Notes: generated by a model from the sequence alone, not told the origin. DNA of 16,720 nt from Calothrix sp. HK-06 (GCA_001904745.1 MRCD01000152.1:1-16720); one strand, 5' to 3'; positions 99 through 16,720 are shown, counted from the stretch's first letter. A program made the numbers and translations.

Positions 99-1826
99 AT
101 GACTAACTTTGCAGTTTGCCGAATCCAAAAGATAAAAAGCTGGGCATCGCTAATTAACAGTGCGATGCACGTAGCACGCGCGCATGAAATCGAGAACGCT
201 GATTTATCAATAAAAAATGTTTCCTTAATTGATGGCGCCGACGGTAAGGACATCAAGGAAATGTTTTTAGAAAAAATCGGCACCCAGAAGATACGCTCGA
301 ATGCAGTGCTGGGCATCGAAATGCTCTTGACCGCTAGTCCCCAATACTTCCGACCTGATAATCCAGACCAAGCTGGATTCTATATCCAAGAACGAGTAGA
401 CAATTTTGCTGCTGCTTGTACCGATTGGTTACTGACTCGTTATTACGGTAAAGTTGTCCAAGCTACAATGCACTTGGATGAATCGACTCCACATATCCAC
501 GCTTATATAGTACCCCTGGATAACAGAGGAAAACTTAATGCGAAGGGATTATTCCACGGGCGCCATAAACTCTCAGAATTATTAGATAGTTTTGCCCGCG
601 CGGTTGAACACCTGGGTATCAAACGCGGAGTCAAAGGAAGCAAAGCCAAACACCTTGATATAAAAAAATATTACGCTGCTGTAAACTGCAAGTCACTCCA
701 CATTAATTTAGATGATGTACTGCCGATACCAAACGATAATCAATCGGCTTTTGCATACCGTGAGTTAATCAAAGAAATTCTCCAACCCCAACTGGATATT
801 CTGAATCATCAAATCAATGACCGTGATTTACAACTACGGGAGAAAAAACATATCGAGCAGACTGCACAAGCTAGCGAGCGCGAAAGACAAAAGTTAGAAT
901 CGCGTGTGCAAAACTTAGCCTGGACTTTAGAATTATGGCAAGCGCAAGCTAACTTGTTACGCGACTTACCTTTAGAAGAGGTCGCTTACCATTTGGGGCT
1001 GCATTTAAATAGTAAAGGAATTTGGGAGGGTAATGGTTCTTCATTACGAATAGTCGGCGCCAAGTTTTACGATTACAGCGGCGCGCAATATGGTAGTGGT
1101 GGCGCTATTGATTTGGCGATGCATTTATTGCAGTGTAACTTTCGGCAAGCTGTTGCTTGGTTACATGAAATTTTTGGAGAGTCTGATTGCTTGCGTGCAG
1201 TTACCCATCATGCTAGAGAACAAACCCAAGAAATTATCTCTACCGAACGAGTACCAGAATTTGTGGCGCCTGACAGTGACCAAAGTCGATGGCATGATGT
1301 TCGTAATTATTTAGTGGACACTCGTAAGTTACCTGGCAATTTTATAGATAATCTACATGCTGCTGGGTTGATATATAGTGACGCGCGTGCAAATGCTGTT
1401 TTTGTAATGCGGTCGATGGAAAATGAAGTTACGGGCGCCTTTTTACGTGGAACATATGGATTTAACAACACTTTCTATGGTTTAGCCAAGGGTAGTAAAC
1501 GCAGTAAAGGTTGGTTTCATTTTACTGCTGGTGGACAAGGTGAGGATAAGATAATACGCACGGTTCTTACAAAATCCCCAATTGAAGCGTTATCAATCGC
1601 AGTGCTAGACCATTCCCTACTGGAGAAAACTATATATATAGCTATTGACAGTCCTCGGTGTATGCCTGTTGAGTTCCTAAGTTACTTTAAAAATATTCTT
1701 GCTGCTTATGATAACAATGCTTCGGGGGAAGAAATAGCAGGCGCCCTCTTAAAAGTTTTACCGCAAACTACTCGACTTAAACCTTCATGCCAAGATTGGA
1801 ATCAACAGTTAATTTTGATGAGGTAA
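99..1826 (+). CDS. MobV-family (Mob/Pre) relaxase with a C-terminal DUF3991/Toprim-like domain
   Basis: The ORF is open from GTG 69. ATG 99 gives MTNFAVCRIQKIKS, a typical Mob/Pre N-terminus. HLDESTPHIHAYIVP matches the HxDExxPHxH metal-binding relaxase motif. The middle is coiled-coil (QASERERQKLESRVQNL). The C-terminal half has GSGGAIDLAMHLL..AVAWL (DUF3991-like) and KSPIEALS .. AIDSP .. AYDNNASGEE (Toprim-like acidic motifs). Confidence 0.85.
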   Translation: MTNFAVCRIQKIKSWASLINSAMHVARAHEIENADLSIKNVSLIDGADGKDIKEMFLEKIGTQKIRSNAVLGIEMLLTASPQYFRPDNPDQAGFYIQERVDNFAAACTDWLLTRYYGKVVQATMHLDESTPHIHAYIVPLDNRGKLNAKGLFHGRHKLSELLDSFARAVEHLGIKRGVKGSKAKHLDIKKYYAAVNCKSLHINLDDVLPIPNDNQSAFAYRELIKEILQPQLDILNHQINDRDLQLREKKHIEQTAQASERERQKLESRVQNLAWTLELWQAQANLLRDLPLEEVAYHLGLHLNSKGIWEGNGSSLRIVGAKFYDYSGAQYGSGGAIDLAMHLLQCNFRQAVAWLHEIFGESDCLRAVTHHAREQTQEIISTERVPEFVAPDSDQSRWHDVRNYLVDTRKLPGNFIDNLHAAGLIYSDARANAVFVMRSMENEVTGAFLRGTYGFNNTFYGLAKGSKRSKGWFHFTAGGQGEDKIIRTVLTKSPIEALSIAVLDHSLLEKTIYIAIDSPRCMPVEFLSYFKNILAAYDNNASGEEIAGALLKVLPQTTRLKPSCQDWNQQLILMR

Positions 1827-1831
1827 GTTAT

Positions 1832-2072
1832 ATGAAAGCAACAGAGTGAGAAAAAATATCCAAACATTGCTCGCTGGATAGACGAACATACTGGTTGGAT
1901 TGAGATTGGTTATAACGTTGATAGTCCTCTTAATTCTTATATCCGCGCGATTGACTGTGGTGGGATGTTTTGAGAGGGAAAGGAGAGTTACGAAACTGTA
2001 GAGGAAGCACTGCAAGATTTAAATGCTGGACTGGAAGATGTTTTAGAAGAAATTTACGGCACCGATAATTAA
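1832..2072 (+). pseudogene. decayed small conserved hypothetical gene (frameshift plus TGG-to-TGA nonsense)
   Basis: ATG 1832 reads MKATE and then hits TGA at 1847. Shifting one base continues as EKKYPNIARWIDEHTGWIEIGYNVDSPLNSYIRAIDCGGMF, then TGA at 1971-1973, then EGKESYETVEEALQDLNAGLEDVLEEIYGTDN, with stop at 2070-2072. The GGMF-stop-EG context looks like GGM(F/I)WEG with Trp TGG mutated to TGA. Recognition of the family is from memory only. Confidence 0.4.
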
Positions 2073-2093
2073 TTTTATTGAGAGGAATTTAAT

Positions 2094-2465
2094 TTATATT
2101 GTGATTGAGCCGGGAGCATCCAAAAAGATTCCCAAATGGGCCTCGCATTTGACAAATTGCTTGCTGTTCCTCAATTACTAAAGGTTCTCTATATAATTTG
2201 GTGCCATGCTTTTTAGCATAATCTACAGCTTGCTCAAATTTCTCAACGCGCTCCTTTTGCTACTTGACCTGCATTTCCAGAACGCCTGCATTTCGTCCGT
2301 AAGATGGAAAAACATTTTAATCCCGTTGATGTCAATAGCTGCTCCTCGTACTTCGTTCTCTACGTAAAAGTATTTTACTGGTAAATCTAAAAGTTGACTG
2401 TACCATTGAGCAGCTGCAACAACATCATTAACAAAATAAAATATAGCTTGAACACTCTTAAACAT
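2094..2465 (-). pseudogene. VOC / glyoxalase-bleomycin-resistance family gene broken by frameshifts
   Basis: The N-terminal part (ORF 2223-2465) reads MFKSVQAIFYFVNDVVAAAQWYSQLLDLPVKYFYVENEVRGAAIDINGIKMFFHLTDE and is VOC-like. The reading frame then degenerates. A different frame downstream encodes VEKFEQAVDYAKKHGTKLYREPLVIEEQQAICQMRGPFGNLFG, with stop at 2094-2096, resembling the usual C-terminal DPFGN.FG end of VOC proteins. Confidence 0.5.
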
Positions 2466-2471
2466 ATTTAC

Positions 2472-3011
2472 TTATTCTATTTTTTGTAGTCGGTGCCTAA
2501 ATTCCAAATCTATAATATTTCTAGCTCCTATGAACAATACAATTTCACGCTCAGTTGGAGAAAGCCAAATTTGATATAACTGTTCATCATATTCTTCGGC
2601 TTCAAGTATTGTACCTACTTCCAAATATTTACTTCCAAAAAAATCAGAATTACCAAAATGGAACTCTCCTTCTATTTTTAGTTTTGCTTGCTTCAATCGT
2701 CCGCTCGTCTTGGCTTGGTAATAAGCTTGAGACAGTTCTTCTGAACTTGTAACCTTATAAACAAACTTCTCCATTAATGTATTACATTTTTCTTCTCCTA
2801 ACTTCATCATTAACTTTGATGGTGGTGGACTTTTATAATTTGCTATTTTCTCTTCGTTATCGCCCTTCGGGCAAACTACGTTAACAGCAATCTGAACTTT
2901 TAACTTTTGAATACAATACTTTACTGCTTCTTGTACACTGATATTATGAATCTCGGCTATTTGCTTAACATGAGCAATAAGCTCAAGCTTCCGAAAAGAA
3001 TTAGATTCCAT
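2472..3011 (-). CDS. hypothetical protein (179 aa)
   Basis: An intact ORF with an ATG start and a protein-like composition. The N-terminus (ELIAHVKQIAEIHNISVQEAVKYCIQKL) could be a small DNA-binding helix pair. No family was recognised. Confidence 0.5.
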   Translation of the reverse strand: MESNSFRKLELIAHVKQIAEIHNISVQEAVKYCIQKLKVQIAVNVVCPKGDNEEKIANYKSPPPSKLMMKLGEEKCNTLMEKFVYKVTSSEELSQAYYQAKTSGRLKQAKLKIEGEFHFGNSDFFGSKYLEVGTILEAEEYDEQLYQIWLSPTEREIVLFIGARNIIDLEFRHRLQKIE

Positions 3012-3371
3012 ATTTATTGATGAATGTAAACGTCAACAAAGTATTACTATCCGCTCGCTCCAGGCACCGATTAATCCTAATTATTTTTAATTAAACTCTA
3101 AACTACAGATAAATCAAAATTTTCTCCTTTTTCCTCAACTGCATACTCTAAAACTAATCTTTTTATTTCCTTAAAGTATTTTAGGTATGTTTCTACACTT
3201 TGGAAGATATAAAAGGTGAGAAGGTTGAAGTATATAGAGACACTACTGGTATTCCACCCACAGATTATGCGCGTATCATTGGACAGCTGTTAGTAAAAGA
3301 TTACAACTTAATTTAGAACAATAAGAAAGCCTACAACTTCTTCATATTAAATTAACTTTACATACTTGGGA

Positions 3372-4028
3372 TTACTTGAGCAACCCCAATTCCATGCCAG
3401 CGATTAATTGTTGGGCAAGAGGATAAAATATTTCTGCACGTTGTTTAGTCTTAGAACTAAACCCACCATTATCAACAATTTCGCATTTAATTTCAGTTTG
3501 TCCCGGTGACTGCTGCTTTATTACAATCCTACCAAGTTTACCAAGTTCTTTGTGCGTAAACACGTAATAAAAAGTAGTACCTTCTTGTTCCTTGCGAAAG
3601 CTAACTCCCGTGGGCATCTTCATGGGGGTTAAGATGACATTGCTTATTCCTACCATATCCATTACACCGTTCGGCCGTGCGATAAATAGTTCTACTTTAG
3701 GTGGTACAACCATAACAACCACAGCTTCGTTGCTAGGGTCATATTGTTGAAGAACGCTTGCAACTTCACGCTTAAATTCGACGCTTGTCATCCACAAGGC
3801 AACTGAACTATCAGCTTGGGGCACATAAAGAAAATCTTTCCGTGGCGCCTGTAAACCCAAAATGATACCTCTATCCCATTCGCTGTATTGTGCAAGAGCT
3901 ACCTGTAACGCAACACTTCCAAACACTTGTAAAAATGGTCGGTTTGGGTCGGTATGGATTTGCACTATGCCATTTTCAATCAAATGCTTGACCGAAAAAC
4001 TAATTGGGTCATTATGTGAATCTTTCAC
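3372..4028 (-). CDS. hypothetical protein (218 aa)
   Basis: An intact ORF with a GTG start at 4028, preceded by AGGTG 5 nt upstream. No recognisable motifs. Confidence 0.55.
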   Translation of the reverse strand: MKDSHNDPISFSVKHLIENGIVQIHTDPNRPFLQVFGSVALQVALAQYSEWDRGIILGLQAPRKDFLYVPQADSSVALWMTSVEFKREVASVLQQYDPSNEAVVVMVVPPKVELFIARPNGVMDMVGISNVILTPMKMPTGVSFRKEQEGTTFYYVFTHKELGKLGRIVIKQQSPGQTEIKCEIVDNGGFSSKTKQRAEIFYPLAQQLIAGMELGLLK

Positions 4029-4344
4029 GGATACACCTAGTTAACAAAGCTTCAATCATTGTACGGTAAGCGGCGCCAACTTTATGCTACAACCTGGCTC
4101 TCTATTAGCATCGGAACAAAAACCGGGTAATCGCAGTGTTACATGAATGTTACAGAAGTAACCAAGCGCTGTTCGCAGAGCGTGCCGTTAGGCATAACCC
4201 TTGATTTATAGCTCTTGAGATTGCTTAGTAATTTATAGAGTGAGCCACCACACCCCCAATCAAATCCTTATGCAATAAGACTTTTAAGCTTAACCCGGTA
4301 ATAGTTCCAATGATGCTTCTAAGCCTTCCCATGCGAATGTCGAA

Positions 4345-5298
4345 TCACCTATTAAGTGAGTTAACACAAGTATAAATTATTCTTTTAAATCCTTGTACTT
4401 TACGCTTAGGCATTGGCTTGTTAAATTCAGAGGTTAATATTGCTAATCCCTCATTCGATACCAAATAACTCGTATTATTGATTGGGCAATTTTGTGGTGT
4501 ACGTTTTTCAATCAACGCACTACAAATATGATGCCACGGAATGGCACCAAGTAAACTAGTACATATCACCATCAGCGAAGAAGGTAAGTCTACATAATTG
4601 CATAATATATCTTGTGATTTATGCAATATCCAGCAGTAAGACATTAGAGATATTAGTATATTTTCCTTACCAGGAGTAAATACATATTGTGAAGCAAGCT
4701 GGGCACTTGATGTCTGAATGTCAAGATATTGTTTGGTAATTTGACCAATTTGTTTTTTCAATTCATAATCAACTTCAATGTTGATAAAATCGTCGTTGTA
4801 CAAATTGTTTATTGCAATATCTACTAATCCAGTAATTATATCAGTTCGCTTGCGATGCTTCCTATAAATTTCAAATATTACTGTATCGAAACTAGCCTTT
4901 CTATCATTACATGTGATGGGGAGTAGTCTTGCTATATTGTACATCATTGGTTCGCGAAATGATAATTTCTGAGGGGTGTCTGATAAACCCACAAATGTAG
5001 GTTGAATCCCAAAATCCAATATTTCAAGAAATCGCTGCCTAAACAATGCCAATGATTGTTTGCGATTTGTGTGTTTTATTGATTTGTAAACGACGCTTTT
5101 TATGTTTGACCTATCAGGACAGTCGATGCTTACACCGGGAAAGTGGCGCCAGTAAGTTCGTTTATGCTCACCGCAAGCTAAACAAATTTCTCCGAAACAC
5201 GTGCCGCATACTGGTAGTTTATCGCAATACGTTTCATAATCGGCATCGGATGCCTTTATTATATCTCCGTCAGCTATACTGAATGCTGTTACACTCAT
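4345..5298 (-). CDS. hypothetical protein with an N-terminal Cys-rich zinc-ribbon (CoiA-N-like pattern)
   Basis: 317 aa. The N-terminus CDKLPVCGTCFGEICLACGEHKRTYWRHFPGVSIDC has CxxC..CxxC, then a basic-aromatic-His segment, then Cys. This is reminiscent of the zinc-finger N-terminus of CoiA-like proteins. The rest is unrecognised. Confidence 0.55.
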   Translation of the reverse strand: MSVTAFSIADGDIIKASDADYETYCDKLPVCGTCFGEICLACGEHKRTYWRHFPGVSIDCPDRSNIKSVVYKSIKHTNRKQSLALFRQRFLEILDFGIQPTFVGLSDTPQKLSFREPMMYNIARLLPITCNDRKASFDTVIFEIYRKHRKRTDIITGLVDIAINNLYNDDFINIEVDYELKKQIGQITKQYLDIQTSSAQLASQYVFTPGKENILISLMSYCWILHKSQDILCNYVDLPSSLMVICTSLLGAIPWHHICSALIEKRTPQNCPINNTSYLVSNEGLAILTSEFNKPMPKRKVQGFKRIIYTCVNSLNR

Positions 5299-5377
5299 GT
5301 TCGCTCAATTAATAATTATTTAATTACGAACATGCGTGCATTTGCGATGATATTGATTATAAATAATTAAGCGCATG

Positions 5378-5408
5378 AAGAGGAATGTACATAGGTTGTA
5401 CACCTCTT
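5378..5408 (-). terminator. candidate hairpin terminator / regulatory stem-loop after the 5420-5971 gene
   Basis: aagagg(aa)tgtaca-taggt-tgtaca-cctctt forms about 12 bp of stem with a 5-nt loop, starting 11 nt downstream of the stop codon at 5420-5422. It lacks a clean U-tract on the minus-strand transcript. Confidence 0.3.
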
Positions 5409-5419
5409 TACTCTGTGAG

Positions 5420-5971
5420 TTAATTCAAGCAATAGTTATTAAACCAAGTTATAATTCTGTTTCGATAGGCACTAGGGCTTCTGAATGATTCAAACATTCC
5501 ATTTTTTGAATAATTTTGTATATATTCTTGCATTTGCTTTTGATGCTCAAGTAATATTTGTTCTAATTGCTCAGGAGTGATTTCTGCTTTTTGGCTGGGG
5601 TTAGCTTTTGGGTATTGTTCCCGTAGAAATTTCATTTCTGTGTTGAATTCTGTTACGTATAAATCGCATGAATATTGATTGAGTAAAAGGATGTGTGATG
5701 GCTCAGTATCATCGGAGCCAAAGTCGATATTGTAATCTGGTTTTAATTTTTGGTATGCTTTTGCTAATTCTATGCTCATACCATCATTTTTTAAAAGGGG
5801 ATAGTACACATCGTAGTAGCTGAAGGTTTTGCTCCATCCACCGTCGCTCCAAGTTGCATTTGTTGCCTGGTAAAATATCCCAATCCATTGTTTCGTTTCT
5901 TCTACCACATTTATTGCTTCTTTTAGAAATTCAGGAGCGGGAATTGAGAGTTTGTAACTATGTTCAAACAT
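5420..5971 (-). CDS. hypothetical protein (183 aa from ATG 5971)
   Basis: The ORF track starts at 6061, but that would overlap the upstream gene by 62 nt. ATG at 5969-5971 (MFEHSYKLSIP) lies 28 nt after the upstream stop codon and is the more plausible start. No family was recognised. Confidence 0.5.
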   Translation of the reverse strand: MFEHSYKLSIPAPEFLKEAINVVEETKQWIGIFYQATNATWSDGGWSKTFSYYDVYYPLLKNDGMSIELAKAYQKLKPDYNIDFGSDDTEPSHILLLNQYSCDLYVTEFNTEMKFLREQYPKANPSQKAEITPEQLEQILLEHQKQMQEYIQNYSKNGMFESFRSPSAYRNRIITWFNNYCLN

Positions 5972-5999
5972 AATGTTTTTCTTGATAGTTAATAGTTTT

Positions 6000-6692
6000 T
6001 CAATTTGTTGGCGGCATAGGTTCAACTTTATACCGTTGCCGCATGATTCTGAATAACGCAATTCTTACCTCATAGGGGTTGCGATGTGAGTGAAATGTGA
6101 AACACATCCCGTTATTTAATGCCTTTATTTCATCCGATGTTAGTGGTACATGTTCTGCATAATTTGATACTCCTTGCCTATGTGCTATTTCTACCTGTTT
6201 ATTGATGCCAGGTTTTGTTTGTAGCAATTTTAAACATTCAATGGGTATTATTTCTACCATCCAGCTACCATCCGAAGTACTGAACCAGGCGGCACCTATT
6301 TTACATCTACCAAAATTGACGTTGAGGTTGGTAGCGTGCGACTGGGCAATGTTGATGCTATCGTATTCGCCTAATGTTTTTTGATGCCACACAGTATTAA
6401 AAACTTCCCATTTCGTCGGGTTTATTGTACTTTGTCGTACCATGTAACGAGCAGGTGTAGGCGCCAATAGTTGTGTGTCAACCCAAGTGTAGTAATCTTC
6501 CCCTATATACACAGCATGAATAAATGCGCGATTTTTTGATTCGTTTTTATGCAGAATCTCTACTTCGTACCCGTGCGCGAGGGCGACTGGTGTACCATCA
6601 CAAACCCAGGTGTTAGAGTTATCTATGTCTCCATCATATTCGGGGTAAGCGATATTGAGTTTCAAAGTTACCCATACTTTACTTTCACGCAT
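6000..6692 (-). CDS. hypothetical protein (230 aa)
   Basis: An intact ORF with ATG at 6690-6692, preceded by an extremely AT-rich leader. No family was recognised. Confidence 0.55.
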   Translation of the reverse strand: MRESKVWVTLKLNIAYPEYDGDIDNSNTWVCDGTPVALAHGYEVEILHKNESKNRAFIHAVYIGEDYYTWVDTQLLAPTPARYMVRQSTINPTKWEVFNTVWHQKTLGEYDSINIAQSHATNLNVNFGRCKIGAAWFSTSDGSWMVEIIPIECLKLLQTKPGINKQVEIAHRQGVSNYAEHVPLTSDEIKALNNGMCFTFHSHRNPYEVRIALFRIMRQRYKVEPMPPTN

Positions 6693-6967
6693 ATTTTTAT
6701 TAAAATTATTATTAATATAATTGTGTGAGCAATAACGATTTTATTAATATAAGTTATATTATATAAATCGATAGGGTCACATGCTATAACCGCAGCCAAT
6801 TCATTGATAAAATAAAATTCATGTTTACCTTCGTTATCCTCGATTACCAGCATATTGTCTACGTCGTAGTCGATTGAAGAATAACCATAAAGATAGATAA
6901 CTGGCGCCAGTTTAATATTTTTCAATAAGGGCGAAGGTTTGGGGACATTATGGTTAAAGCGCATCAT
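6668..6967 (-). CDS. possible small hypothetical protein (99 aa)
   Basis: The first ~70 aa look protein-like (APVIYLYGYSSIDYDVDNMLVIEDNEGKHEFYFINELAAVIACDPIDLY). The tail (AHTIILIIILIKICVKVKYG) is a translation of the AT-rich leader of the next gene, so the true 3' end is uncertain. Confidence 0.35.
   Translation of the reverse strand: MMRFNHNVPKPSPLLKNIKLAPVIYLYGYSSIDYDVDNMLVIEDNEGKHEFYFINELAAVIACDPIDLYNITYINKIVIAHTIILIIILIKICVKVKYG
6709..6752 (-). promoter_or_regulatory. AT-rich leader with a 12-nt direct repeat upstream of the 6000-6692 gene
   Basis: TTATTAATATAA occurs at 6709-6720 and 6741-6752, a 32-nt period, in an almost pure A/T stretch just upstream of ATG 6692. It is a possible promoter or operator, but low sequence complexity makes chance repetition likely. 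Confidence 0.2.
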
Positions 6968-7168
6968 CTTAATTACGTGTATACTTATGACGTATTTTAT
7001 ACTATAATTGTTTGATTATGATTAGCCACGTTAGTAAAATAAGTACCAGTTAAATTAGGTTACATAACTAGCGCTTATTGAATTACGTGATGGTACTGTC
7101 AAATAATGTTTTTTGTTAGCAATTTATCAATTGCTACCATACCATTGGATTCTGCTATTTTTGGTACC

Positions 7169-8047
7169 TTAAGCATAACAATTGAAAATATTTGTTTGAA
7201 TTGTCAATTCGTCGATATTTTGAGCATAGGCGATTGAAATTGCAGGGTCACGACTATTTTGATATTTACTACCCTTACTACCGCTAAGTTGACCACTTGC
7301 TGAGTCAGCACTGAATAGCAACCCAATAATTAAATTATCATCAAGCTGCCTTTTTGATAGTCCATAGCCATGTAGTTTTATATCGGGTCGCTGCATTTTT
7401 ATTGAAGTCAGTATCGAAAAGACTTCACTGTTTGGGCGCCGTTTTAACCCCCCAACCCCGACCCAGGCATTTTGCTGAATAGTATCACCGTATTGTGAAA
7501 GATGACAATTGTAGTCTGCTGCTGTTTTACCTTGTAGTATAGGTATTACATACGGGAGGTCACGTTCATCAAACTCCTCACAAACTTGGTCGTAGATATC
7601 CAGTAATTCATAATCACATTCCTCGTCAGCATACTCCATGAAACTCGCATGAAGCTCCACCATTGCTTCAAGATGAATATCTTTCAGGTGCTTTTTGATC
7701 TTATGGTATCGATGTATTGTTAAACGTTGATGTGCAGGGACATCGAGTTTTGTGAAATCAATTACCTCATCGAAGCATGGGTAGTCCTGGGTAGAGGCGC
7801 CGACGAGAGAACCACCCACTAACTTACTATTCAGGGCCCATTTATATATAGTACTTGCATATTTTTTTGTGGATGGGTAGGGTTTACCATTGAGTAGTCG
7901 CGTAAATCCGCAATCTAGCAACCAATCTTTGACGGGAAAGGTGGATTTACGATGTTCAATGCGATTGTAGGAAATGCATACTCTTAAAAAATCGCGTGTG
8001 CCCGATTTACCGCAGTTTGGCTGATTCCAGCCAGGAAAAAACAGCAT
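7169..8047 (-). CDS. DpdA-like TGT-fold protein (putative DNA-guanine / 7-deazaguanine transglycosylase)
   Basis: 292 aa. The ordered motifs match my memory of the DpdA / tRNA-guanine transglycosylase superfamily:
- MLFFPGWNQPN at the N-terminus;
- VCISYNRIEHRKSTF;
- WLLDCGFTRL, in place of the usual LDSGGF substrate-Asp motif;
- VIPILQGKTAADY, the (P)V(L/V)QG motif;
- VGVGGLKRRP;
- IKLHGYGLS, the LHGFG motif;
- FSADSAS, the SADS(M)AW motif.
ATG at 8045-8047. No HMM or structure search was possible. Confidence 0.6.
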   Translation of the reverse strand: MLFFPGWNQPNCGKSGTRDFLRVCISYNRIEHRKSTFPVKDWLLDCGFTRLLNGKPYPSTKKYASTIYKWALNSKLVGGSLVGASTQDYPCFDEVIDFTKLDVPAHQRLTIHRYHKIKKHLKDIHLEAMVELHASFMEYADEECDYELLDIYDQVCEEFDERDLPYVIPILQGKTAADYNCHLSQYGDTIQQNAWVGVGGLKRRPNSEVFSILTSIKMQRPDIKLHGYGLSKRQLDDNLIIGLLFSADSASGQLSGSKGSKYQNSRDPAISIAYAQNIDELTIQTNIFNCYA

Positions 8048-8741
8048 TATGTGTTTGGAGATAAGATTTAATGGCGTTTGCGATAAACTCTGCCAACTTC
8101 ACGGGTACGGCATTACCAATCATTTCTTCTAAATTAGTGTTTGTTTCATTACTGAAATCAAAGTTTGACGGGAATGTTTGAATCGCCGCACGTTCAAACG
8201 TAGTCAGTGGTCGTAGTTTTGAATTAATAGGCGCCGTATCACTTGGATGACCCTTATAACCCGGTGGTATCGGTCGATTCGTTCCCCGAATTGTGGGCGA
8301 TGGTTCCGAAATACTGAATACTGCTCGCCTTTTATAACTGCGTGCGTGTCTATAATAATGTTCGATGTTGAGACTATCGCCAAAATAATCACGCACCGTC
8401 ATTGGTTTGAATGACAATCCTGCGTTTAAATAGGGTAGTAACTCATGGTCGGCACCATTGAGTACACCCACACAGATGTAACGTTGCCTGTTTTGGGGTA
8501 CTCCACAATATGCGGCATTGAATACTTTTTCAGTTAATCCATATTTATTACGTTTTAATATTTCGATAACTTGTTTATATTTTTTGCTTTTTTGATAGCG
8601 TTCAACATTTTCCATTACGAATATTGATGGTTGAATGTATTCAATTAATTCAGCAAACCTGATACTCAAATCTCCGCGACCACTATCTTCATTACGGGAG
8701 CCAGCAGAGCTAAAATCTTGGCAAGGTGAATTATGTTTATT
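8007..8741 (-). pseudogene. 5'-truncated DNA (cytosine-5) methyltransferase remnant (motifs IV-X only)
   Basis: The frame is open from the stop at 8742-8744 and reads NKHNSPCQDFSSAGSRNEDSGRGDLSIRFAELIEYIQPSIFVMENV..GVPQNRQR..PSPTIRG..QTFP..GNAVPV. It is collinear with residues ~80-320 of the intact paralog at 9059-10045, roughly 60% identical by eye. Motifs I-III, including the FxGxG SAM-binding loop, are missing. Homology starts at the PCQ codons (~8721-8729). The start in the ORF track is only a TTG (an internal Leu of DLSIRF). Confidence 0.8.
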
Positions 8742-9058
8742 CTACAACGTAAAATCCGCCTCAAAAAGTAATTATAATTATACCTTCTACAAAGTAAGCC
8801 ATTGAAAAACCAATTTTATATTTTTTTAATTATTGAAGAAAATTCTAGGGAGGTCGGCGCCTGGAGCATTAGAGTTTTAGGCTTGACCTTCACTCTCAAT
8901 ACCATGCTTGTTCTTTAACGCACGGCTTGTTAAAGTTATTAGATTCAACAACCGCCTCGTATTTCTCATTAACAAGACTCCTTTTTTGTTAACTTTGCTT
9001 TCTGGGCATCGCAAGCTCCGTTCCTATATGGAACACAGTGAAAGACATTAACTTATTA

Positions 9059-10045
9059 CTAAATTTGTAAGCTAGGTACTAACTGTGTTGATTGCATTTG
9101 TTTAACATTCAACTCAATGTTATCTTTCATATATTGGAGCAAGCATCTTGCAAAAAACTCAGCTAACTTAACAGGTACAGCATTAGCAATCATTTGTTCT
9201 AAATCAGTTTTCGATTGGCTTTTTTCATCAAAATCAAAACTTTTGGGAAATGTTTGTATGTAGCTTCGCTCAATAGTAGTTAATGGACGTAAATCAGGAG
9301 TGAGAGGCGCCGCATCACCAGGATGTAATTTATAAGTTTTAGGAATTGGTCGGTTTACCCCTCTGATTGTAGGACTAGGTTCATCAATACTAAATATACC
9401 TCGTCTTTGATAAGTTCTAGGATGCCTGTAGTAATATTCAAGACCCAGCCTGTTTCCTAAATAATGCCTGATTGTAGTTGGTTCTTTGGATAAATTATAG
9501 TTTATGTATGGAATTAATGCGTTATCAATACCGTTTAATTCTCCTATACAAAAATATCTTTTTCTACTTTGAGGAACTCCGCAAAATGCTGCATTAATTA
9601 TTTTTTCTGTCAACCCATAACCACTATTTTTAAATATATTGATAACTTGGTTATATTTCTGGCTTTTTTGAAACCTATCTACATTTTCCATTACAAACCA
9701 TTTAGGTTTGACCGAAGCAATTATTTTAGCAAACGTGATACTCAAATCACCTCTTCCTAAATTCTCATTGCGCTTCCCGACACTTGAGAAGTCTTGACAA
9801 GGTGGACCAGAAATAATAATATCAGGTTTGAAACTGGTAAAATCATTATAATCGTTTAAATTGCCTAAGTCACAATTATAAATTTCATGCAAGAAGTTCT
9901 TTCTATAAATTTGTATTGCTGGCTCCCAGTTATCAAAAGCTGCTACTATTTTAAAACCTACATTTTGAAACCCTAGAGATAGTCCACCACAGCCAGCGAA
10001 TAAATCAATAGCTCTTAAACTTATCTCATGTGTTTTATTGCTCAT
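9059..10045 (-). CDS. DNA (cytosine-5) methyltransferase, intact
   Basis: 328 aa with the full set of C5-MTase motifs:
- I: IDLFAGCGGLSLGF
- IV: GPPCQDFS
- VI: ENV
- VIII: QSRKR
- TRD with PSPTIRG
- IX: QTFP
- X: ANAVPV. Confidence 0.9.
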   Translation of the reverse strand: MSNKTHEISLRAIDLFAGCGGLSLGFQNVGFKIVAAFDNWEPAIQIYRKNFLHEIYNCDLGNLNDYNDFTSFKPDIIISGPPCQDFSSVGKRNENLGRGDLSITFAKIIASVKPKWFVMENVDRFQKSQKYNQVINIFKNSGYGLTEKIINAAFCGVPQSRKRYFCIGELNGIDNALIPYINYNLSKEPTTIRHYLGNRLGLEYYYRHPRTYQRRGIFSIDEPSPTIRGVNRPIPKTYKLHPGDAAPLTPDLRPLTTIERSYIQTFPKSFDFDEKSQSKTDLEQMIANAVPVKLAEFFARCLLQYMKDNIELNVKQMQSTQLVPSLQI

Positions 10046-10165
10046 TTTAGTCTATAAACCTTAAAGATATTTTGTTGCCTAAATAATACCATAAAATGTT
10101 CGGATAAAACTGGGATTTTACAGAATAAAATTATCCGTATTAAATTTTAAATTTTGATGATTAAG

Positions 10166-11479
10166 CTAATCTTTGTAATTAGAAAATTTACCAATACTAG
10201 GGTCAAATACTACCTTACAAGTATCTGTTACGCCATTTCTGTTTTTAGCGACTATTATCTCCATAATTCTTTTATCACTAGTATTTGAGTTGTAATATTC
10301 ATCTCGATAAAGTAGTAGTCCTAAATCCATATCCTGTTCAATATCGCCAGAATCTTTAATATCAGCCATAGAAGGACGTTTATTACTTTGACCTTCTACA
10401 CCACGATTGATTTGAGCAAGAACTACAAATGGGACATTAAATATTTTAGCAATATCTTTACAAGCCCCACAATATTTACCAATGGCTTGCGCTCTATTTC
10501 CTGCTGCTCTATCCCCAAGCTTTTGAATATAGTCTAATACTACTAATCCTAATTCTCCTTTTTCAGATTCTACTCTACGAAGTGCAGAACGAATTTTAGT
10601 GGGGGTTAGCTCACCTGCTGGAGTATCATCAATTATAATCGGTAATTCAGATAGATTAGATAAACCTTTTACTAAAGAATCATATTCCTCCTCATAAATT
10701 AGATTGTGCATCAGCCTTTGGGAATCAATACCTGTGTGCATAGAGAGGAACCTTTTAGTTAGTTGTTCCTCAGACATTTCTGCACTAAAAAACAATACTG
10801 GCTTATGGATACTGCTTGCAATATAATTAGCCAGATAACAGCCAAACCAGCTTTTACCCATAGATGGTCTAGCAGCAACTACAATTAAGTCTTGTTTAAT
10901 TAAGCCACCAATTAGAGTATCTAAGCCTGTTAAACCTGTAGGGTAAGCAGGAGACGAACCCTGCTCTATCCTATTCAATAAATTAGCTAAACACTCATTA
11001 ATGGGTTTAGGTTGGAATTTAGTTTTATTGTTAGTTGTAATATTAAATAGTTTTTGTTCAGATTGCTCAAATATTTGTTCTAATTCCGTACTAGTATCGC
11101 ATCCTAAATCTACTATTGTATGTCCTACTGATACTAATTGACGGCGTTGGTATTTATCCAGTACTAGGGCAGCGTAATGGTCTATATTTACTGCTGATAC
11201 AGCCCGGTTAAGAAGTTGAGATAATTTAGTGTCACCTCCTACTTTTTCTAAAAGTTTATGGTCAGCCAGCCAAGTAGAAACAGTCATTAAATCTGTTTGT
11301 TTATTATTTTGATATAGCAGTAAAGCTGCTTTATAAATTTGTTGATGACCATGAGTACAAAAAGATTCTACAGGAAGTATGTCAGCAAGTATACCCATAG
11401 CATTGGGGTCAAGTAAAATACATCCCAATATGGCTTCTTCAGCTTCGATATTTCCTAAAAACTGATTACTCTTCGACAT
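10166..11479 (-). CDS. dnaB: replicative DNA helicase DnaB
   Basis: 437 aa. The DnaB N-terminal signature is NIEAEEAILGCILLDPNAM. Walker A is ARPSMGKSWF and Walker B is LVVLDYIQ. The RecA-like C-terminus has LAQINRGVEGQSNKRPSMADIKDSGDIEQDMDL. There is no intein. The start overlaps the upstream gene by 14 nt. Confidence 0.9.
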   Translation of the reverse strand: MSKSNQFLGNIEAEEAILGCILLDPNAMGILADILPVESFCTHGHQQIYKAALLLYQNNKQTDLMTVSTWLADHKLLEKVGGDTKLSQLLNRAVSAVNIDHYAALVLDKYQRRQLVSVGHTIVDLGCDTSTELEQIFEQSEQKLFNITTNNKTKFQPKPINECLANLLNRIEQGSSPAYPTGLTGLDTLIGGLIKQDLIVVAARPSMGKSWFGCYLANYIASSIHKPVLFFSAEMSEEQLTKRFLSMHTGIDSQRLMHNLIYEEEYDSLVKGLSNLSELPIIIDDTPAGELTPTKIRSALRRVESEKGELGLVVLDYIQKLGDRAAGNRAQAIGKYCGACKDIAKIFNVPFVVLAQINRGVEGQSNKRPSMADIKDSGDIEQDMDLGLLLYRDEYYNSNTSDKRIMEIIVAKNRNGVTDTCKVVFDPSIGKFSNYKD

Positions 11480-12350
11480 TTGTTTTGTTAAATAAGTTGC
11501 TAAGTTGTTTGAGTTTATCCTGTGAAATTAATTTCTTTTGGTTATCTTGTATAACCACTGAAGATTGATTTGATGTTAATGGTGTCGATTGTTCACGAAT
11601 GTTAGGCTGTGCTTCGTCACGTATCATTGATAGTAAACAAGCAGCAGGATTTTCTACATTAGTTTTACTACTATACTCTTGAAAAGCTTCAATTGATAAC
11701 TTAACTTTATGATATTCGCGGCTGACTATTTCCTGCTTTAGTTTTGAATTAATCTTAATTCCCATTTCGTTGATTAATTGAAATATATCTAAGTTTTCTG
11801 ATTGAACATTCTTCTCATGAATTTCTCTGGTTATATAAATATCAGTTGTAGAGGAACTTGTATTAGATTGATTTACTCTTATAGGGACTATTTTTTTATC
11901 AGAGTGAACAGGAACTACCTCTCGTAATTGTGAGCGTAAACGTTCGCACTCGTCTCTAAGTTCGTAAATTTCTGCTACATGACCTCTAAGTTTTTCATTT
12001 TGATGTTTAAGTTCCCTAACCTCTGTTTCTAGTTCTCTAATTCTTTGCTTGGCAACTTCATGTAAAGTTTTAAGGCTATGGGGTCTTGGGTCTTTTTGTT
12101 CTAACGTATTTAATGTAGACTCCTTTTCATGTTGAATTTCGTGTATATATACTTTAATTTCATCCCATTTATAGAGATAAGAAATAGAACATCCTGCAAC
12201 ATTAGCAATCGAAGCAAATGTCAATGGTTGTTTTTGAGCAAGTATTTCTTGAATTGCTTTTAATACTTGCTCTTTTTTTTGTTCCTTTTTTTGGGCTTGA
12301 GTGCGACGCAGAACTTCAGCTTGTTTATCGCGATTATGATTTTTAACCAT
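11466..12350 (-). CDS. HTH plus coiled-coil protein, TnpC/DUF6262-like accessory protein of Tn554-type recombinase modules
   Basis: 294 aa. The basic N-terminus is followed by a probable HTH (PLTFASIANVAGCSISYLYKW) and then a strong heptad coiled coil (IRELETEVRELKHQNEKLRGHVAEIYELRDECERLRSQL). It overlaps both neighbours (8 nt and 14 nt). The family assignment is from memory of proteins found next to paired Tn554-like integrases. Confidence 0.5.
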   Translation of the reverse strand: MVKNHNRDKQAEVLRRTQAQKKEQKKEQVLKAIQEILAQKQPLTFASIANVAGCSISYLYKWDEIKVYIHEIQHEKESTLNTLEQKDPRPHSLKTLHEVAKQRIRELETEVRELKHQNEKLRGHVAEIYELRDECERLRSQLREVVPVHSDKKIVPIRVNQSNTSSSTTDIYITREIHEKNVQSENLDIFQLINEMGIKINSKLKQEIVSREYHKVKLSIEAFQEYSSKTNVENPAACLLSMIRDEAQPNIREQSTPLTSNQSSVVIQDNQKKLISQDKLKQLSNLFNKTNVEE

Positions 12351-14169
12351 TTGTTAAATCTCTTAATTGTGGTAGCCATTTATCCATTGCCTCGATAGTG
12401 GCTCTGGCTTCTTCTTTCGCTAGTTCAGCACCTGCTTGTCCTGCTTCTTCTAGTCTTTGATGTTCTCCTTTATACTGGCGTTCGTAGAGAGGTAATTTAG
12501 CTGTGCTAGGACGAAAACTAGAACAGCCATAGCATTTAGGGTAAAGATTAATAGGACAGGGCGTTTTGGGTTCAAGAACACAGTGTCCATAAACTACTAA
12601 GCGTGGGGCTATTTCGAGGTCAAGTTCGTGTGCTTTAGAATTTTTAATTAGGCTTTCTGGTAAAGTTTGCCAAGGAAGGAACTTGTTATCAGGGTTCATT
12701 AACAGTTCCTGAAAAGGCAAGTCTACTGCTGCTACCTGCTCCCTAGTAGGGGGTGCATAGTTTTGAAAAGTAGTACTACTTATTGTATGGTCAGCATAAA
12801 GTTTAGCAGCTTCAATACCGTATTTTACACGTATTTCTTGCAATCTGTTGTGGCGAGTAATTTTACCTGTAAAATGAGGTCTTTGCCCGTTGGTATCACG
12901 GATGTTTTCTTTTTCTATAAGTAAACGAATAATGCATACCATTGTATTTTCCTTGACATTTACACGGGGTGGAATTGGTAAGGGTTTCATGTTAGTAAAG
13001 GCTGGGTAAGAATCATTTTTTACATTTATAAAATGACAAAACAGATATGGATACTCTAACTCCAATGTTTGTCTTATCCATTGCTGTTGTTCTTCAATTA
13101 TTTTTCTAATTTCACGAGTGGCAGGTATTTGATGCCATCGCTTAGTTTTATGTTGATAAAATTTAATATACCATTTTTGATTTTCTTCCACTAAGCAATC
13201 AAATAACAATTGGCAAATATCTCCTGGACGAGCAGCAGTATACTCCTGTATTAAGTAATGACAAGCAATAAATGCAGGAATTTTAGATAGATTATTTTGA
13301 ATGGATGTGCGCGTTACTTCATCCAACCAGTCTGGGTCATTTTTAATTTCTTTGAGGTAATCACGCCGACGAATTAAGTATGATGAATTAAGCCCTAACC
13401 ATTCAAAAAAACATTTTAGATAGCTTAGTTTGTGATTGATGGTTTTATTGTCGCAATCCTTATAGTTATCTAAAAAACTTAGCAAGGCTTCGCGGCTAAT
13501 ATCGGTAGCTTCTTTGATGTTGAAATTTTCTACAATTTGTCCAAACTGCTTTAAATTTGTTAGAGAGTGTCTAATTCCTGACGGAGCAGAATAAGCTCTC
13601 GATTTGAGTAAGTATTGTATATAGTTTTTAACCTCTAATTTATACCATTGTGGTAAAACTTTTTGAAAATTAATTGATTGTGGATAAGGATTATCGTAGA
13701 AATGTCTTAAATCCCAAATATCATCATCTAAATAGAAAGGCGGCAATTTATTTTTTGTTTTGCCATCTATCCAACTTCGACAAAACGTTGAATTAAGTTC
13801 AAAGCTAGTACCGCAAAAGTGACAATGACACTTTTCTCGTGTATGTTTTGTTGTATAAATCCACCCTTTTTGTCCATTATATCCTACTTCATTACAAACA
13901 GGATTAGGACATTCTATATCAGGACGATAGTTGCAAGTATAGGTAGGAACTGAAGAAGTTAGAGATACCCACTTTTCACAATTACTACACATAAATCTAA
14001 TCTTACATTTTGAAGTGTCTTTAAAATAAGTTTTCTTAAGATTACTTTTCTGACAGTTTGGGCAAATAAATTCGCCTTTATAATCCTTCTCCCAATCCAC
14101 CTTTAATTGTCCGTGTAAAGTAGGATGAATAGAGATAGTAGAAGATTGTTGTTTAGTCATTAAATTCAC
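12343..14169 (-). CDS. tyrosine recombinase-like protein 3, with N-terminal zinc ribbons and a C-terminal Cys cluster
   Basis: 608 aa. The GTG start at 14167-14169 overlaps the upstream TGA (GTGA); an alternative ATG is at 14160. The N-terminus has CPNCQ..CSNCEKW and CPNPVC..CHCHFCG. The recombinase-like core has AARPGDICQL (Arg), TRHNRLQ (a degenerate HxxR box) and ADHTISSTTFQNY (His..Tyr). The C-terminus has CVLEPKTPCPINLYPKCYGC. Confidence 0.65.
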   Translation of the reverse strand: MNLMTKQQSSTISIHPTLHGQLKVDWEKDYKGEFICPNCQKSNLKKTYFKDTSKCKIRFMCSNCEKWVSLTSSVPTYTCNYRPDIECPNPVCNEVGYNGQKGWIYTTKHTREKCHCHFCGTSFELNSTFCRSWIDGKTKNKLPPFYLDDDIWDLRHFYDNPYPQSINFQKVLPQWYKLEVKNYIQYLLKSRAYSAPSGIRHSLTNLKQFGQIVENFNIKEATDISREALLSFLDNYKDCDNKTINHKLSYLKCFFEWLGLNSSYLIRRRDYLKEIKNDPDWLDEVTRTSIQNNLSKIPAFIACHYLIQEYTAARPGDICQLLFDCLVEENQKWYIKFYQHKTKRWHQIPATREIRKIIEEQQQWIRQTLELEYPYLFCHFINVKNDSYPAFTNMKPLPIPPRVNVKENTMVCIIRLLIEKENIRDTNGQRPHFTGKITRHNRLQEIRVKYGIEAAKLYADHTISSTTFQNYAPPTREQVAAVDLPFQELLMNPDNKFLPWQTLPESLIKNSKAHELDLEIAPRLVVYGHCVLEPKTPCPINLYPKCYGCSSFRPSTAKLPLYERQYKGEHQRLEEAGQAGAELAKEEARATIEAMDKWLPQLRDLTNG

Positions 14170-15608: not shown

Positions 15609-16720
15609 TATTCTTGCTCCTCTGCCGCTAGATAAACATCTAGGCTCATGTCATTTAGTACATGAGAATAAATATCTTTAGTAGTCGCAATTGAACTGTG
15701 CCCTAATAGCTGCTGAACATAGTGGTCGGCATAACCAGCTTGAAGCATCCTAGTAGCAAAAGTATGCCTGAATAAATGAGGATGTGCTTTAATTCCTGTT
15801 CTATCTTTTAGTTGATAAAAGAGACTATTTAACCTTGCACTAGTCATAGGTTTTCCAATATACTGACCATCCAAATTAACAAACAGCATTCCATGCCTAA
15901 GTTTTTCTGCTTCTTTTGGATATTCTTCTAGTAAATAAGTATGAAAAGTTTCTTGAACCGCCTCTCTGTTATGAAGGACTGGTATTTCTCTCTCTGTGCC
16001 TTTGGCTATCGCTCCATTGGGATTATTGTCCCGCCTTATAACTCTAATTCTTCCTCTTTTATCAAAGTCATGTAAGTCTACTAAATGCAAGCCTAATAGT
16101 TCTCCTCTTCGTATTCCGGTTTCTCTCAGTAGCATCATTATTAGCCTGTCTCTATAGCTATAACAGGCATTTGCCAGTTGACTTACTTGTTCGTCAGTCA
16201 GGCAACCAGGGAAGATTTTAGGCTCTTTTACTTTAATCCGCTTACGTTTTTCTGGAGTGCTTTTAACTATGCCGCGTAAGAAACCACCTCGTTTACCCCA
16301 TCCGTGAACCAATTTGGTAAAAACTTTTTCGTCAATCCTACCTTCTACAATGTGGAATTCGTAAAGCCCTTGAATGGCTGTAACTGCTTGGTTGACTGTT
16401 TTTGGGCTACGTTTAGAAACTATTTCGCGTACTTCTTCACTGATTACTTCTACTTCGCCACCAAGAAGATACCAGTTGACAAAATCAGCTAGTTCTTGGA
16501 GTCCCACATCTTGCCAGTTAAGAGATTTGTATTCTAGCCACTGCCAAAAACCTACTAATCGGTAAGCGTAAGTATTAACTGTATTAGCCGCTAATTGGCG
16601 TTTACGGCAGTAATTTAAGTATCGCTGGATTGGTTCTACTGGTAAGCAAGTTTCTGTGTCAAATACACAGCAAACTTTTTGCTCTGTTTGAGGGTCAATC
16701 CCTCTCTCTAGGCTTATCAT
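15608..16720 (-). CDS. tyrosine recombinase 1 (XerC/D-like, Tn554 TnpA-like position)
   Basis: 370 aa. The N-terminal SAM-like domain has AANTVNTYAYRLVGFWQWLE. Catalytic residues are ETGIRRGELLGL (Arg), HPHLFRHTFATRML (HxxR), LLGHSSIATT (His) and DIYSHV (Tyr). The ATG sits exactly at the window edge, so a longer N-terminus cannot be excluded. Confidence 0.85.
   Translation of the reverse strand: MISLERGIDPQTEQKVCCVFDTETCLPVEPIQRYLNYCRKRQLAANTVNTYAYRLVGFWQWLEYKSLNWQDVGLQELADFVNWYLLGGEVEVISEEVREIVSKRSPKTVNQAVTAIQGLYEFHIVEGRIDEKVFTKLVHGWGKRGGFLRGIVKSTPEKRKRIKVKEPKIFPGCLTDEQVSQLANACYSYRDRLIMMLLRETGIRRGELLGLHLVDLHDFDKRGRIRVIRRDNNPNGAIAKGTEREIPVLHNREAVQETFHTYLLEEYPKEAEKLRHGMLFVNLDGQYIGKPMTSARLNSLFYQLKDRTGIKAHPHLFRHTFATRMLQAGYADHYVQQLLGHSSIATTKDIYSHVLNDMSLDVYLAAEEQE

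Follow-up and report, generated by a model that had tools for sequence, protein, structure and literature searches.

Members of the DpdA family put 7-deazaguanines into DNA, in phages and in the bacterial Dpd island; what does such a gene do on a cyanobacterial plasmid, overlapped at its start by the end of a C5 cytosine methyltransferase (methylase) gene? The question is raised by a 16,720-nucleotide (nt) stretch of DNA from Calothrix sp. HK-06, called the window below, which is part of a Calothrix-type cyanobacterial plasmid and whose methylase and DpdA genes discussed here all lie on the minus strand. An initial annotation had offered two readings: a dual-modification cassette that combines 5-methylcytosine (m5C) with 7-deazaguanine, or a base-exchanging or base-excising enzyme that acts as the toxic component of a restriction-like pair and is held in check by cytosine methylation. 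We hold, with moderate confidence, that the locus encodes two independent DNA-modifying enzymes in one transcription unit, which likely protect or mark the plasmid DNA. The first of the two earlier readings is accordingly the better fit, given the family's links to YhhQ-type genes and its conserved motifs, with the amendments that the enzymes are independent and that both the inserted base and the methylase target are probable assignments. The features at issue are:

7169-8047, minus strand: DpdA-family gene encoding a protein of 292 amino acids (Pfam PF23859, PHROG 1279, AlphaFold2 and Foldseek)
8007-8047, minus strand: 41 nt shared by the 3' end of the methylase remnant and the 5' end of the DpdA-like gene (direct sequence reading)
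8007-8741, minus strand: C5 cytosine methyltransferase remnant, 5'-truncated (partial Pfam PF00145 match and ortholog comparison)
8729-9058: junction or spacer without recognisable relative, which stands where the methylase 5' end and a further gene, called gene X here, lie in related plasmids
9059-10045, minus strand: intact C5 methyltransferase paralog of 328 amino acids, of the HindV/GRCGYC-type family (PF00145, PADLOC)

The 292-amino-acid protein is an enzyme of the DpdA family with the fold of tRNA-guanine transglycosylases (TGTs), as had been proposed from the sequence. In particular, it matches the Pfam DpdA family PF23859 with an E-value of 5.4e-10 and 39.2 bits, against a curated cutoff of 27, and PHROG 1279 ('queuine tRNA-ribosyltransferase') with an E-value of 1.3e-22. 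Its AlphaFold2 model, calculated with 110 relatives in the alignment, is a TIM barrel with a predicted local distance difference test score (pLDDT) of 93.1 and a predicted template modelling score of 0.90. When the model was compared with solved structures by Foldseek, the top 50 matches were all to the TGT of Zymomonas mobilis (best E-value 3.2e-6); among the viral models of BFVD, the best match was the 'queuine tRNA-ribosyltransferase' of Mycobacterium phage Bella96 (E-value 5e-14, template modelling score 0.70). Moreover, D45 (within DWLLDCGF) and D248-S249 (within SADS) are invariant across the 110 relatives, and D88 (within QDYPC), Q172-G173 and the glycine-rich loop W195-V-G-V-G199 (within WVGVGG) are conserved in at least 90% of them. 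The Salmonella DpdA and the TGTs share three invariant aspartates: D95 as the general acid/base, D130 as the base-binding residue and D256 as the nucleophile (PMC10164549). From their common order and similar motifs, we infer that D45, D88 and D248 are the equivalents of these catalytic and base-binding residues.

With the Salmonella Montevideo Dpd system (DpdA, DpdB and DpdC together with DpdD-K), the window protein shares the Pfam family, the TGT-type TIM barrel, a predicted guanine exchange in double-stranded DNA and, judged by order and motifs, probably the three conserved aspartates; unlike that system, it has no zinc site, it is not accompanied by DpdB, DpdC or restriction genes, and it is about 100 residues shorter. 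Because of its length, its missing zinc site and the lack of DpdB or any other Dpd partner, the protein is assigned to the short, phage-type ('singleton') branch of DpdA and not to the bacterial Dpd system. The singleton enzymes of phages (Orion gp20, Bella96, phiLM21 gp25 and those of the Microcystis phages Mwe-JY25 and JY07) likewise have a TGT fold of about 250-290 amino acids and no preQ0 synthesis genes beside them; they are 27-32% identical to the window protein, belong to the same PHROG and include its best structural match in BFVD. Among named relatives, the nearest are found in the Microcystis phages (32% identity), Sinorhizobium phage phiLM21 (gp25, 29.5%) and about 360 mycobacteriophages, including Orion (27%). 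The neighbourhood in phiLM21 is also of the same kind, with a DpdA gene, a DNA methylase and a DnaB helicase; it differs in having a YhhQ gene beside its DpdA gene, where the window has none. In contrast to all of these phage genes, the window gene is carried by a plasmid, is overlapped by a C5 methylase gene and encodes an acidic insertion of 42 residues.

Close relatives of the protein are few, with 12 in a collection of 5.8 billion proteins, and these too carry PF23859; a profile built from them reaches more than 5000 proteins of about 250 amino acids, all with PF23859, and an exhaustive HMMER search over representatives at 50% identity returned 1321 clusters at E-values of 0.001 or below. 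Profile searches of the sequences in the PDB gave no match to solved DpdA or TGT structures, and no nuclease domain was found in the protein by Pfam. The insertion that distinguishes the close plasmid clade is helical and spans residues 125-166 (window positions of about 7550-7675), with 15 Asp or Glu residues against 1 Lys or Arg. It is absent from the phage-type family of about 250 amino acids and is unexpected in a DNA-binding enzyme; it could be regulatory or form a protein-protein interface.

The overlap of the two genes can be read directly from the sequence: on the plus strand, 'tta' at 8007-8009 is the minus-strand TAA that ends the methylase frame and 'cat' at 8045-8047 is the minus-strand ATG that starts the DpdA gene, which gives the same 41 nt as the initial annotation. 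The methylase is truncated, as was also noticed then. The open reading frame (ORF) at 8007-8669 matches the PF00145 C5-methyltransferase profile at positions 93-323 of 324 only; the frame is closed upstream by an in-frame TAG (8742-8744) and open from 8741 on, and its homology to the intact ortholog from Calothrix NIES-4105 extends as far as 8728, where the PPCQ motif has its first Pro. About 77 N-terminal codons are lacking, including the S-adenosylmethionine-binding motif I, and motifs I-IV are missing from this methylase. Translation could begin at the earliest at a TTG (8667-8669) that comes after the catalytic Cys codon (8721-8723), and therefore methylase activity of the remnant is excluded. 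The remnant shares 98-99% identity with the intact 317-amino-acid ortholog on plasmid1 of NIES-4105 (locus L001), with a synonymous distance (dS) of 0.04, so that the truncation must be recent. The stretch at 8729-9058 has no match in PLSDB.

The upstream paralog, by comparison, matches the PF00145 profile from position 2 to 320 of 324 (E-value 6.9e-65) and is full length. Between it and the end of the remnant's open frame are 318 nt (390 nt to the TTG), close to the 300 bp given in the initial annotation. Its identity to the remnant's intact orthologs is 57-60%; the similarity of target-recognition regions that was claimed for the two window methylases holds in this comparison with the orthologs, where the region is well conserved. 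The PADLOC model MTase_II PDLC03270 is matched by the paralog with 470 bits and also by the remnant's ortholog. Further, both methylases resemble those of the HindV-type (GRCGYC) Type II restriction-modification (R-M) systems of small enterobacterial plasmids: they are 51-53% identical (the paralog 53%) to a methylase annotated as M.HindV on 6.7-kb E. coli plasmids, and the target-recognition region is conserved across the paralog, the remnant's orthologs and this methylase. Their target is thus probably GRCGYC or its subset GGCGCC, the M.HindV label being an annotation and not a tested specificity. The difference from these systems lies in the partner. The E. coli methylase adjoins a restriction gene of the HindVP type, for an enzyme of 353 amino acids on the opposite strand, whereas the partner here has a TGT fold and the same orientation; no restriction gene was recognised beside the window methylases. 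A third HindV-like methylase, of 305 amino acids, is found on plasmid2 of NIES-4105 (L102 7004-8817), where it is followed by a 253-amino-acid 'bacteriophage protein homolog' that has no Pfam or PADLOC match and could be a restriction partner or another companion.

The junction between the methylase and DpdA genes recurs in five Calothrix-type plasmid loci (80-98% nucleotide identity), in the following states:

Window locus: methylase truncated; DpdA-like gene intact
Calothrix NIES-4105 plasmid1 (L001): methylase intact, 317 amino acids; DpdA-like gene split by an insertion sequence with a 5-bp target duplication
Calothrix PCC 7716 plasmid (L002, L113): methylase with a 1-nt deletion; DpdA-like gene intact, 292 amino acids
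L098: methylase intact; DpdA-like gene intact, 64-nt overlap
L099-L101: methylase intact; DpdA-like gene with a 1-nt deletion beside an A-run, in three samples

Codon analysis gives a ratio of nonsynonymous to synonymous distances (dN/dS) of 0.06-0.11 for the DpdA gene and 0.10-0.15 for the methylase gene, with similar dS values of 0.75-1.0. The similar dS and low dN/dS indicate that both genes have long travelled together under purifying selection. Each is nonetheless found intact beside a broken copy of the other, which speaks for two independent enzymes: the DpdA gene is intact beside a frameshifted methylase in PCC 7716, and the methylase is intact beside a broken DpdA gene in NIES-4105 and L099. 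The insertion sequence of NIES-4105 (L001 8770-11022) is 2.25 kb long with a transposase gene of 1524 nt and sits at about codon 38 of the DpdA gene; its 5-bp target duplication corresponds to window positions 7931-7935.

The overlap itself carries less weight than was first given to it. It is 41 nt in frame +2 in the window and NIES-4105, 64 nt in frame +1 in L098 and 31 nt in frame +1 in L099, and it is missing from PCC 7716, where the methylase's own stop lies 2 nt before the DpdA ATG. The conserved methylase sequence ends with '...KSYLQT', two or three codons before the DpdA ATG, and the tail beyond it varies. Because the length and frame of this tail are variable, the overlap is unconstrained read-through from a lost stop and not a conserved coupling device. 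The initial annotation had seen in it the geometry of a co-evolved operon of the kind typical of R-M systems; a conserved, co-inherited unit does exist (five loci, under purifying selection), but an overlap of 0, 31, 41 or 64 nt in two frames is not diagnostic of R-M.

The synteny of gene X shows how the unit arose. The next gene downstream of gene X is the DpdA gene in L003 and L017 but the methylase gene in L001, L098 and L099; therefore, the methylase was secondarily inserted between the older gene X and the DpdA gene. Gene X itself (L001 12213-13184, L098 126-1004, L099 1353-2213, L003 4911-5726 and L017 5164-5964; absent from the window) encodes a very rare protein of about 270-320 amino acids, with 7 homologs in the 5.8 billion proteins. 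It has no match in Pfam, NCBIfam or the PDB sequences, the libraries scanned for it (PHROGs and PADLOC were not), and its AlphaFold2 model, with a pLDDT of 35, is unusable.

It had appeared at one point that the two genes were never both intact, which would have hinted at incompatibility or an R-M logic. This was dropped, as the seemingly truncated proteins P0005, P0010 and P0011 are gene-caller artefacts and both genes are intact in L098. For these three proteins (210-221 amino acids; L098 2107-3015 and L099 3481-4355), the gene callers start at an internal Met; database entries of the clade look N-terminally truncated because the true DpdA start overlaps the methylase gene.

Beyond the Calothrix-type loci, the association changes. 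The surroundings of the relatives at 60-66% identity are of a plasmid or conjugative kind, with TraG/TrwB in the vicinity, and contain no C5 methylase. Three of them (L005, L011 and L015, at 61-63% identity) have no recognisable methylase; just downstream of their DpdA gene is a conserved gene for a protein of about 293 amino acids without a match in any library scanned, followed in L005 by a gene for about 333 amino acids with a faint DUF8270 signal. The DpdA 3' end of the clade at 64-66% identity is overlapped for 59 nt by a further gene (L003 6803-7408 and L017 6875-7414), which matches TIGR04096, 'DNA phosphorothioation-associated putative methyltransferase', with an E-value of 5e-44, at the cutoff. 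The idea that these homologs lack any methylase is thus only partly true, because L003 and L017 are without a C5 methylase yet carry this dnd-related putative methyltransferase.

In the wider family, 80 metagenome loci with relatives at 29-38% identity were surveyed, 51 of which extend for 1 kb or more beyond the gene on one side. The commonest neighbour family is Vut_1/YhhQ, with 7 of 119 immediate neighbours by Pfam and 8 of the 80 loci by phmmer; in every such case, the YhhQ-type and DpdA genes abut or overlap, and gp26 of phiLM21 is also Vut_1. We take YhhQ to be a family of preQ0/preQ1 transporters. C5 methylases are directly adjacent in L062 (upstream and abutting), L047, L051 and L053, N6/N4 methylases are adjacent in about four metagenome loci and within 3.5 kb in five more, and Dam-type methylases lie near P0019 and P0104. 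The other neighbours are phage genes (NinB, Ead/Ea22, RuvC, Mu gp36, capsid, terminase and integrases). From this survey, the family is therefore an early-region DNA-modification gene of phages, prophages and plasmids, whose neighbours frequently, though not always, include methylases of unrelated classes and a deazapurine importer, which is the pattern of clustered DNA-modification genes. The gene-neighbourhood check that the initial annotation had called for consequently has a divided outcome: adjacency to C5 methylases is recurrent in the five Calothrix-type loci, but it is absent at 60-66% identity, and in the wider family methylases of several classes, C5 among them, lie next to or near some members.

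Taken together, these results suggest the following mechanism. By homology, the singleton DpdA would exchange guanine in double-stranded DNA for a 7-deazaguanine, by way of a covalent Asp-deoxyribose intermediate. The inserted base would most likely be preQ0 or a relative of it from the host's queuosine pathway, since the plasmid encodes no synthesis genes (FolE, QueD, QueE and QueC have no match among 17 scanned window ORFs, or among the called genes of the close homolog loci; the window ORFs scanned were those of at least 80 amino acids, 15 of them against Pfam and 8 against NCBIfam, with 6 in both). There is a precedent for such a supply, as a phage DpdA alone inserts host preQ0 into plasmid DNA in E. 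coli and protects the DNA from restriction (PMC6884629, PMC10516641), and the cyanobacterium Synechocystis encodes QueF, which consumes preQ0 (PMC12475003). The second enzyme would be a HindV-family m5C methylase with the probable target GRCGYC or GGCGCC. After its insertion between gene X and the DpdA gene, the methylase gene would have lost its own stop and read through into the DpdA gene, so that the two would be co-transcribed; in the window, a recent rearrangement would then have removed gene X and the methylase 5' end, leaving a dead remnant and an intact DpdA gene with the paralog just upstream. The benefit would probably be the protection or marking of plasmid DNA against restriction, by analogy with the phage enzymes.

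Several observations weigh against two independent modifying enzymes. The DNA of Orion, whose DpdA at 27% identity is among the nearest characterised phage relatives, is unmodified. YhhQ and preQ0 synthesis genes are absent from the window and from the close relatives (at least 60% identity), and therefore the deazapurine link rests on relatives at about 30-38% identity. The proposed equivalence of D45, D88 and D248 to the DpdA/TGT aspartates rests on motifs, and an hhalign comparison of the family profile with E. coli TGT was not significant. The structural zinc site CXCX2CX22H, described as conserved in DpdA (PMC10164549), is absent from the 292-amino-acid translation, which has no CxCxxC motif and only scattered Cys residues. 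Neither the DpdB ATPase nor any of the DpdC-K partners was found among the window ORFs with Pfam and NCBIfam, and it is the absence of DpdB that counts here. Recurrent linkage to several classes of methylase is also what a family of restriction genes would be expected to show. Finally, expression of the DpdA gene after the truncation is uncertain, and the odd acidic insertion of the close clade either counts against this reading or is left unaccounted for by it.

Some of these points would be explained if the enzyme were a singleton DpdA that has diverged in function, keeping the TGT fold and the aspartates without inserting 7-deazaguanine; its action may be the exchange or removal of a different base, or it may target the DNA of the host or of competitors in an anti-defence or interference role, with the methylase as an unrelated neighbour. 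Orion is the model for such a case: Hutinet et al. found no 7-deazaguanine in the DNA of this phage, whose host lacks preQ0, and left open a divergence in function for its 'singleton DpdA', although DpdAs of the Orion type are conserved in hundreds of mycobacteriophages (PMC6884629). The missing zinc site, the acidic 42-residue insertion (lineage-specific and absent from the family of about 250 amino acids) and conserved neighbours without recognised function (gene X and the 293-amino-acid protein) would all suit such a divergence. However, the family-wide pocket motifs are all retained, including the WVGVGG loop and the Q-G motif, family members at 30-38% identity abut YhhQ-type genes, and Orion's lack of modification is explained by a host without preQ0, which should not apply to cyanobacteria. 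This alternative is therefore considered unlikely, though it is the one that survives best.

The contrast with Orion also gives the preferred reading, of two independent modifying enzymes, its interest. The Calothrix plasmids offer a natural setting for testing if preQ0 made by the host is used by a singleton DpdA to modify DNA, as the host of Orion lacks preQ0 and cyanobacteria have the queuosine pathway. Their sister loci supply methylase-dead, DpdA-dead and both-intact states for asking whether the two marks interact. A plasmid-borne, short DpdA without a zinc site that is co-transcribed with an m5C methylase is not described in the literature searched, where no published pairing of a C5 methylase with a DpdA was found; the statement that no C5 methylase had been described with a TGT-fold partner stands to that extent. 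If the locus is simply an anti-restriction pair, it adds plasmids to the elements that use deazaguanine chemistry, and no more.

A different doubt concerns the window alone, where the DpdA gene may be a silent leftover, unexpressed after the loss of gene X, the methylase 5' end and the promoter, and intact only because the event is recent. The dS of 0.04 to NIES-4105 does make the truncation recent, both genes decay often in the sister plasmids, and no convincing promoter was seen at 8048-9058: a promoter scan of 6900-10300 returned 15 sites against 13 expected, which is chance level, though the scan captures cyanobacterial promoters poorly. An Rfam scan of the window found no family. On the other hand, the ORF is full length with all of the conserved residues, and no terminator-like site was found in a scan of 6900-10300, so that read-through from upstream is possible, from the same-strand paralog and DnaB genes into the DpdA gene. 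Expression of the DpdA gene by read-through is thus plausible from the sequence, and we give the silent state a small chance.

The remaining alternatives tie the enzyme to the methylase, and they involve the hexamer GGCGCC, which is strongly over-represented in the window:

234-9311, no strand: 16 GGCGCC sites (window count against expectation)

The expected number is 0.97, an excess of about 16-fold, and none of 200 shuffled sequences reached 16. There are no sites at 9312-16720, and this right part seems to be a recent acquisition from a genome that lacks the GGCGCC bias. The excess is greater in the plasmid DNA of NIES-4105 and PCC 7716, with 21-59 sites per 13.5-20 kb (40- to 85-fold; L102 has 59 in 16 kb), and the shorter contigs L098-L100 (3.9-4.8 kb) have 6-8 sites. 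The other GRCGYC variants (GACGCC, GGCGTC and GACGTC) are absent or nearly so, and the highly iterated palindrome HIP1 (GCGATCGC) does not occur in the window or in the sister loci checked. The loci of relatives without a C5 methylase have no GGCGCC sites, and some of them carry HIP1 instead. In Calothrix PCC 7103, where two GrCGyC methylases were found, GGCGCC is known as the alternative 'highly iterated palindrome' (Elhai 2015, PMC4390886), and the window matches it in the excess of the same hexamer and in the absence of HIP1 and the other GRCGYC variants. The excess is thus a known Calothrix trait, and it explains why the initial annotation thought of GGCGCC. The difference is that the methylases of PCC 7103 were reported without a link to DpdA, whereas plasmid methylases of that type here adjoin a DpdA gene.

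It is rather improbable that the methylase gates the DpdA-like enzyme in any form, either as a restriction glycosylase with a TGT fold that acts at unmethylated sites or as an enzyme that writes deazaguanine into GGCGCC together with m5C. If true, the writing of deazaguanine at GGCGCC would tie a base-exchange enzyme to the GGCGCC excess of Calothrix.

The restriction-like form of this idea, in which the enzyme would excise or exchange guanine at unmethylated GRCGYC or GGCGCC with toxic effect and m5C made by the methylase or its paralog would protect self DNA, was the second reading of the initial annotation. A mechanistic precedent for a base-excising methylase partner would be the R.PabI family of glycosylase restriction enzymes, which excise adenine at GTAC; their fold is unrelated to that of the window protein, and there is no sign here of excision without re-insertion. 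A case can be made from the gene pair, which is tight, co-inherited and under selection, from a methylase family that otherwise occurs in true Type II systems of the HindV type, from the frequent linkage of the DpdA family to methylases of several classes, and from the window itself, which has kept, beside the dead copy, an intact paralog whose recognition region is of the same type. In addition, in two of the five loci it is the DpdA gene that is broken and the methylase that is intact, the direction in which R-M systems usually decay, and the TGT mechanism passes through guanine excision (PMC10164549).

The comparison with Type II R-M systems nevertheless fails on the partner, which has a predicted TGT fold and no DNA-cleaving domain type, and in the window also on the active cognate methylase, as the remnant is dead and the intact paralog is 58% identical; L098 does have such a methylase alongside. 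In PCC 7716, the DpdA gene is intact beside a methylase with a 1-nt deletion. The relatives L005, L011 and L015 have no recognisable methylase, and the methylase was secondarily inserted into an existing arrangement of gene X and DpdA. The YhhQ-type neighbours point to base insertion and not bare excision, PADLOC has no match to a defence system for the DpdA-like protein or its neighbours, and there is no evidence of toxicity or methylation sensitivity. One of these arguments has to be tempered: Calothrix hosts probably carry other, chromosomal GRCGYC/GGCGCC methylases that could protect in trans (PMC4390886), and therefore a dead plasmid methylase beside an intact DpdA gene does not alone disprove a protective role. 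With the PCC 7716 state, the methylase-free relatives, the late insertion of the methylase and the YhhQ neighbours all speaking against it, and gene order and the excision step as the sole positive evidence, the toxic, restriction-like component that was first proposed is quite improbable.

In E. coli dcm-vsr, the start of the downstream gene overlaps the 3' end of a C5 methylase gene, and the layout of the window resembles it, with the differences that the downstream gene does not encode a Vsr endonuclease (TGT fold, with Pfam DpdA as its only match) and that the overlap is variable read-through. A repair partner of this kind, which would handle the T:G mismatches that arise from m5C deamination and might feed the GGCGCC excess by biased repair, would agree with the confinement of the methylase-DpdA pair to loci with that excess and with Elhai's proposal that methylation-directed biased repair is the origin of such palindromes (PMC4390886), but it is highly improbable, because the fold is not that of Vsr, TGT and DpdA enzymes act on guanine and removal of the G of a T:G mismatch fixes the mutation instead of repairing it, homologs without a methylase occur in HIP1-type genomes that lack GGCGCC, and the overlap is accidental.

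The rest of the window has the following features:

69-1826, plus strand: MobV-type relaxase fused to DUF3991 and a Toprim-like C-terminal part (Pfam Mob_Pre, E-value 1e-31; DUF3991, E-value 2.5e-15)
10166-11479, minus strand: DnaB-type replicative helicase (TIGR00665, E-value 1e-133)
11466-16720, minus strand: 294-amino-acid protein and three consecutive tyrosine recombinases (NCBIfam recombinase matches, including XerC/D and GmtY)

The relaxase is 53% identical to that of NIES-4105 plasmid1 and marks the window as plasmid DNA. Its position also bears on the idea that the cassette is an anti-defence function of a leading region, which was set aside: the relaxase gene has the cassette on its downstream side, which is not the one that would be expected to enter a recipient first. 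The three tyrosine-recombinase genes overlap and encode 608, 480 and 370 amino acids, one of which weakly matches the gamma-mobile-trio recombinase GmtY; the trio is probably a mobile element with its other end beyond the window. That this element carried the paralog and inserted into the old methylase is less likely, as the module conserved elsewhere spans only 11928-16694 and excludes the DnaB and methylase genes. The four-gene recombinase module of the window recurs, at about 69% nucleotide identity, on plasmids of Nostoc, Anabaena and Brasilonema, where it is annotated as 'integrase, tyrosine recombinase x2, DUF6262'. Between the relaxase and DpdA genes (2223-6967) are genes without a family assignment, one of which (4345-5298) is kept in NIES-4105 plasmid1, the PCC 7716 plasmid and L005.

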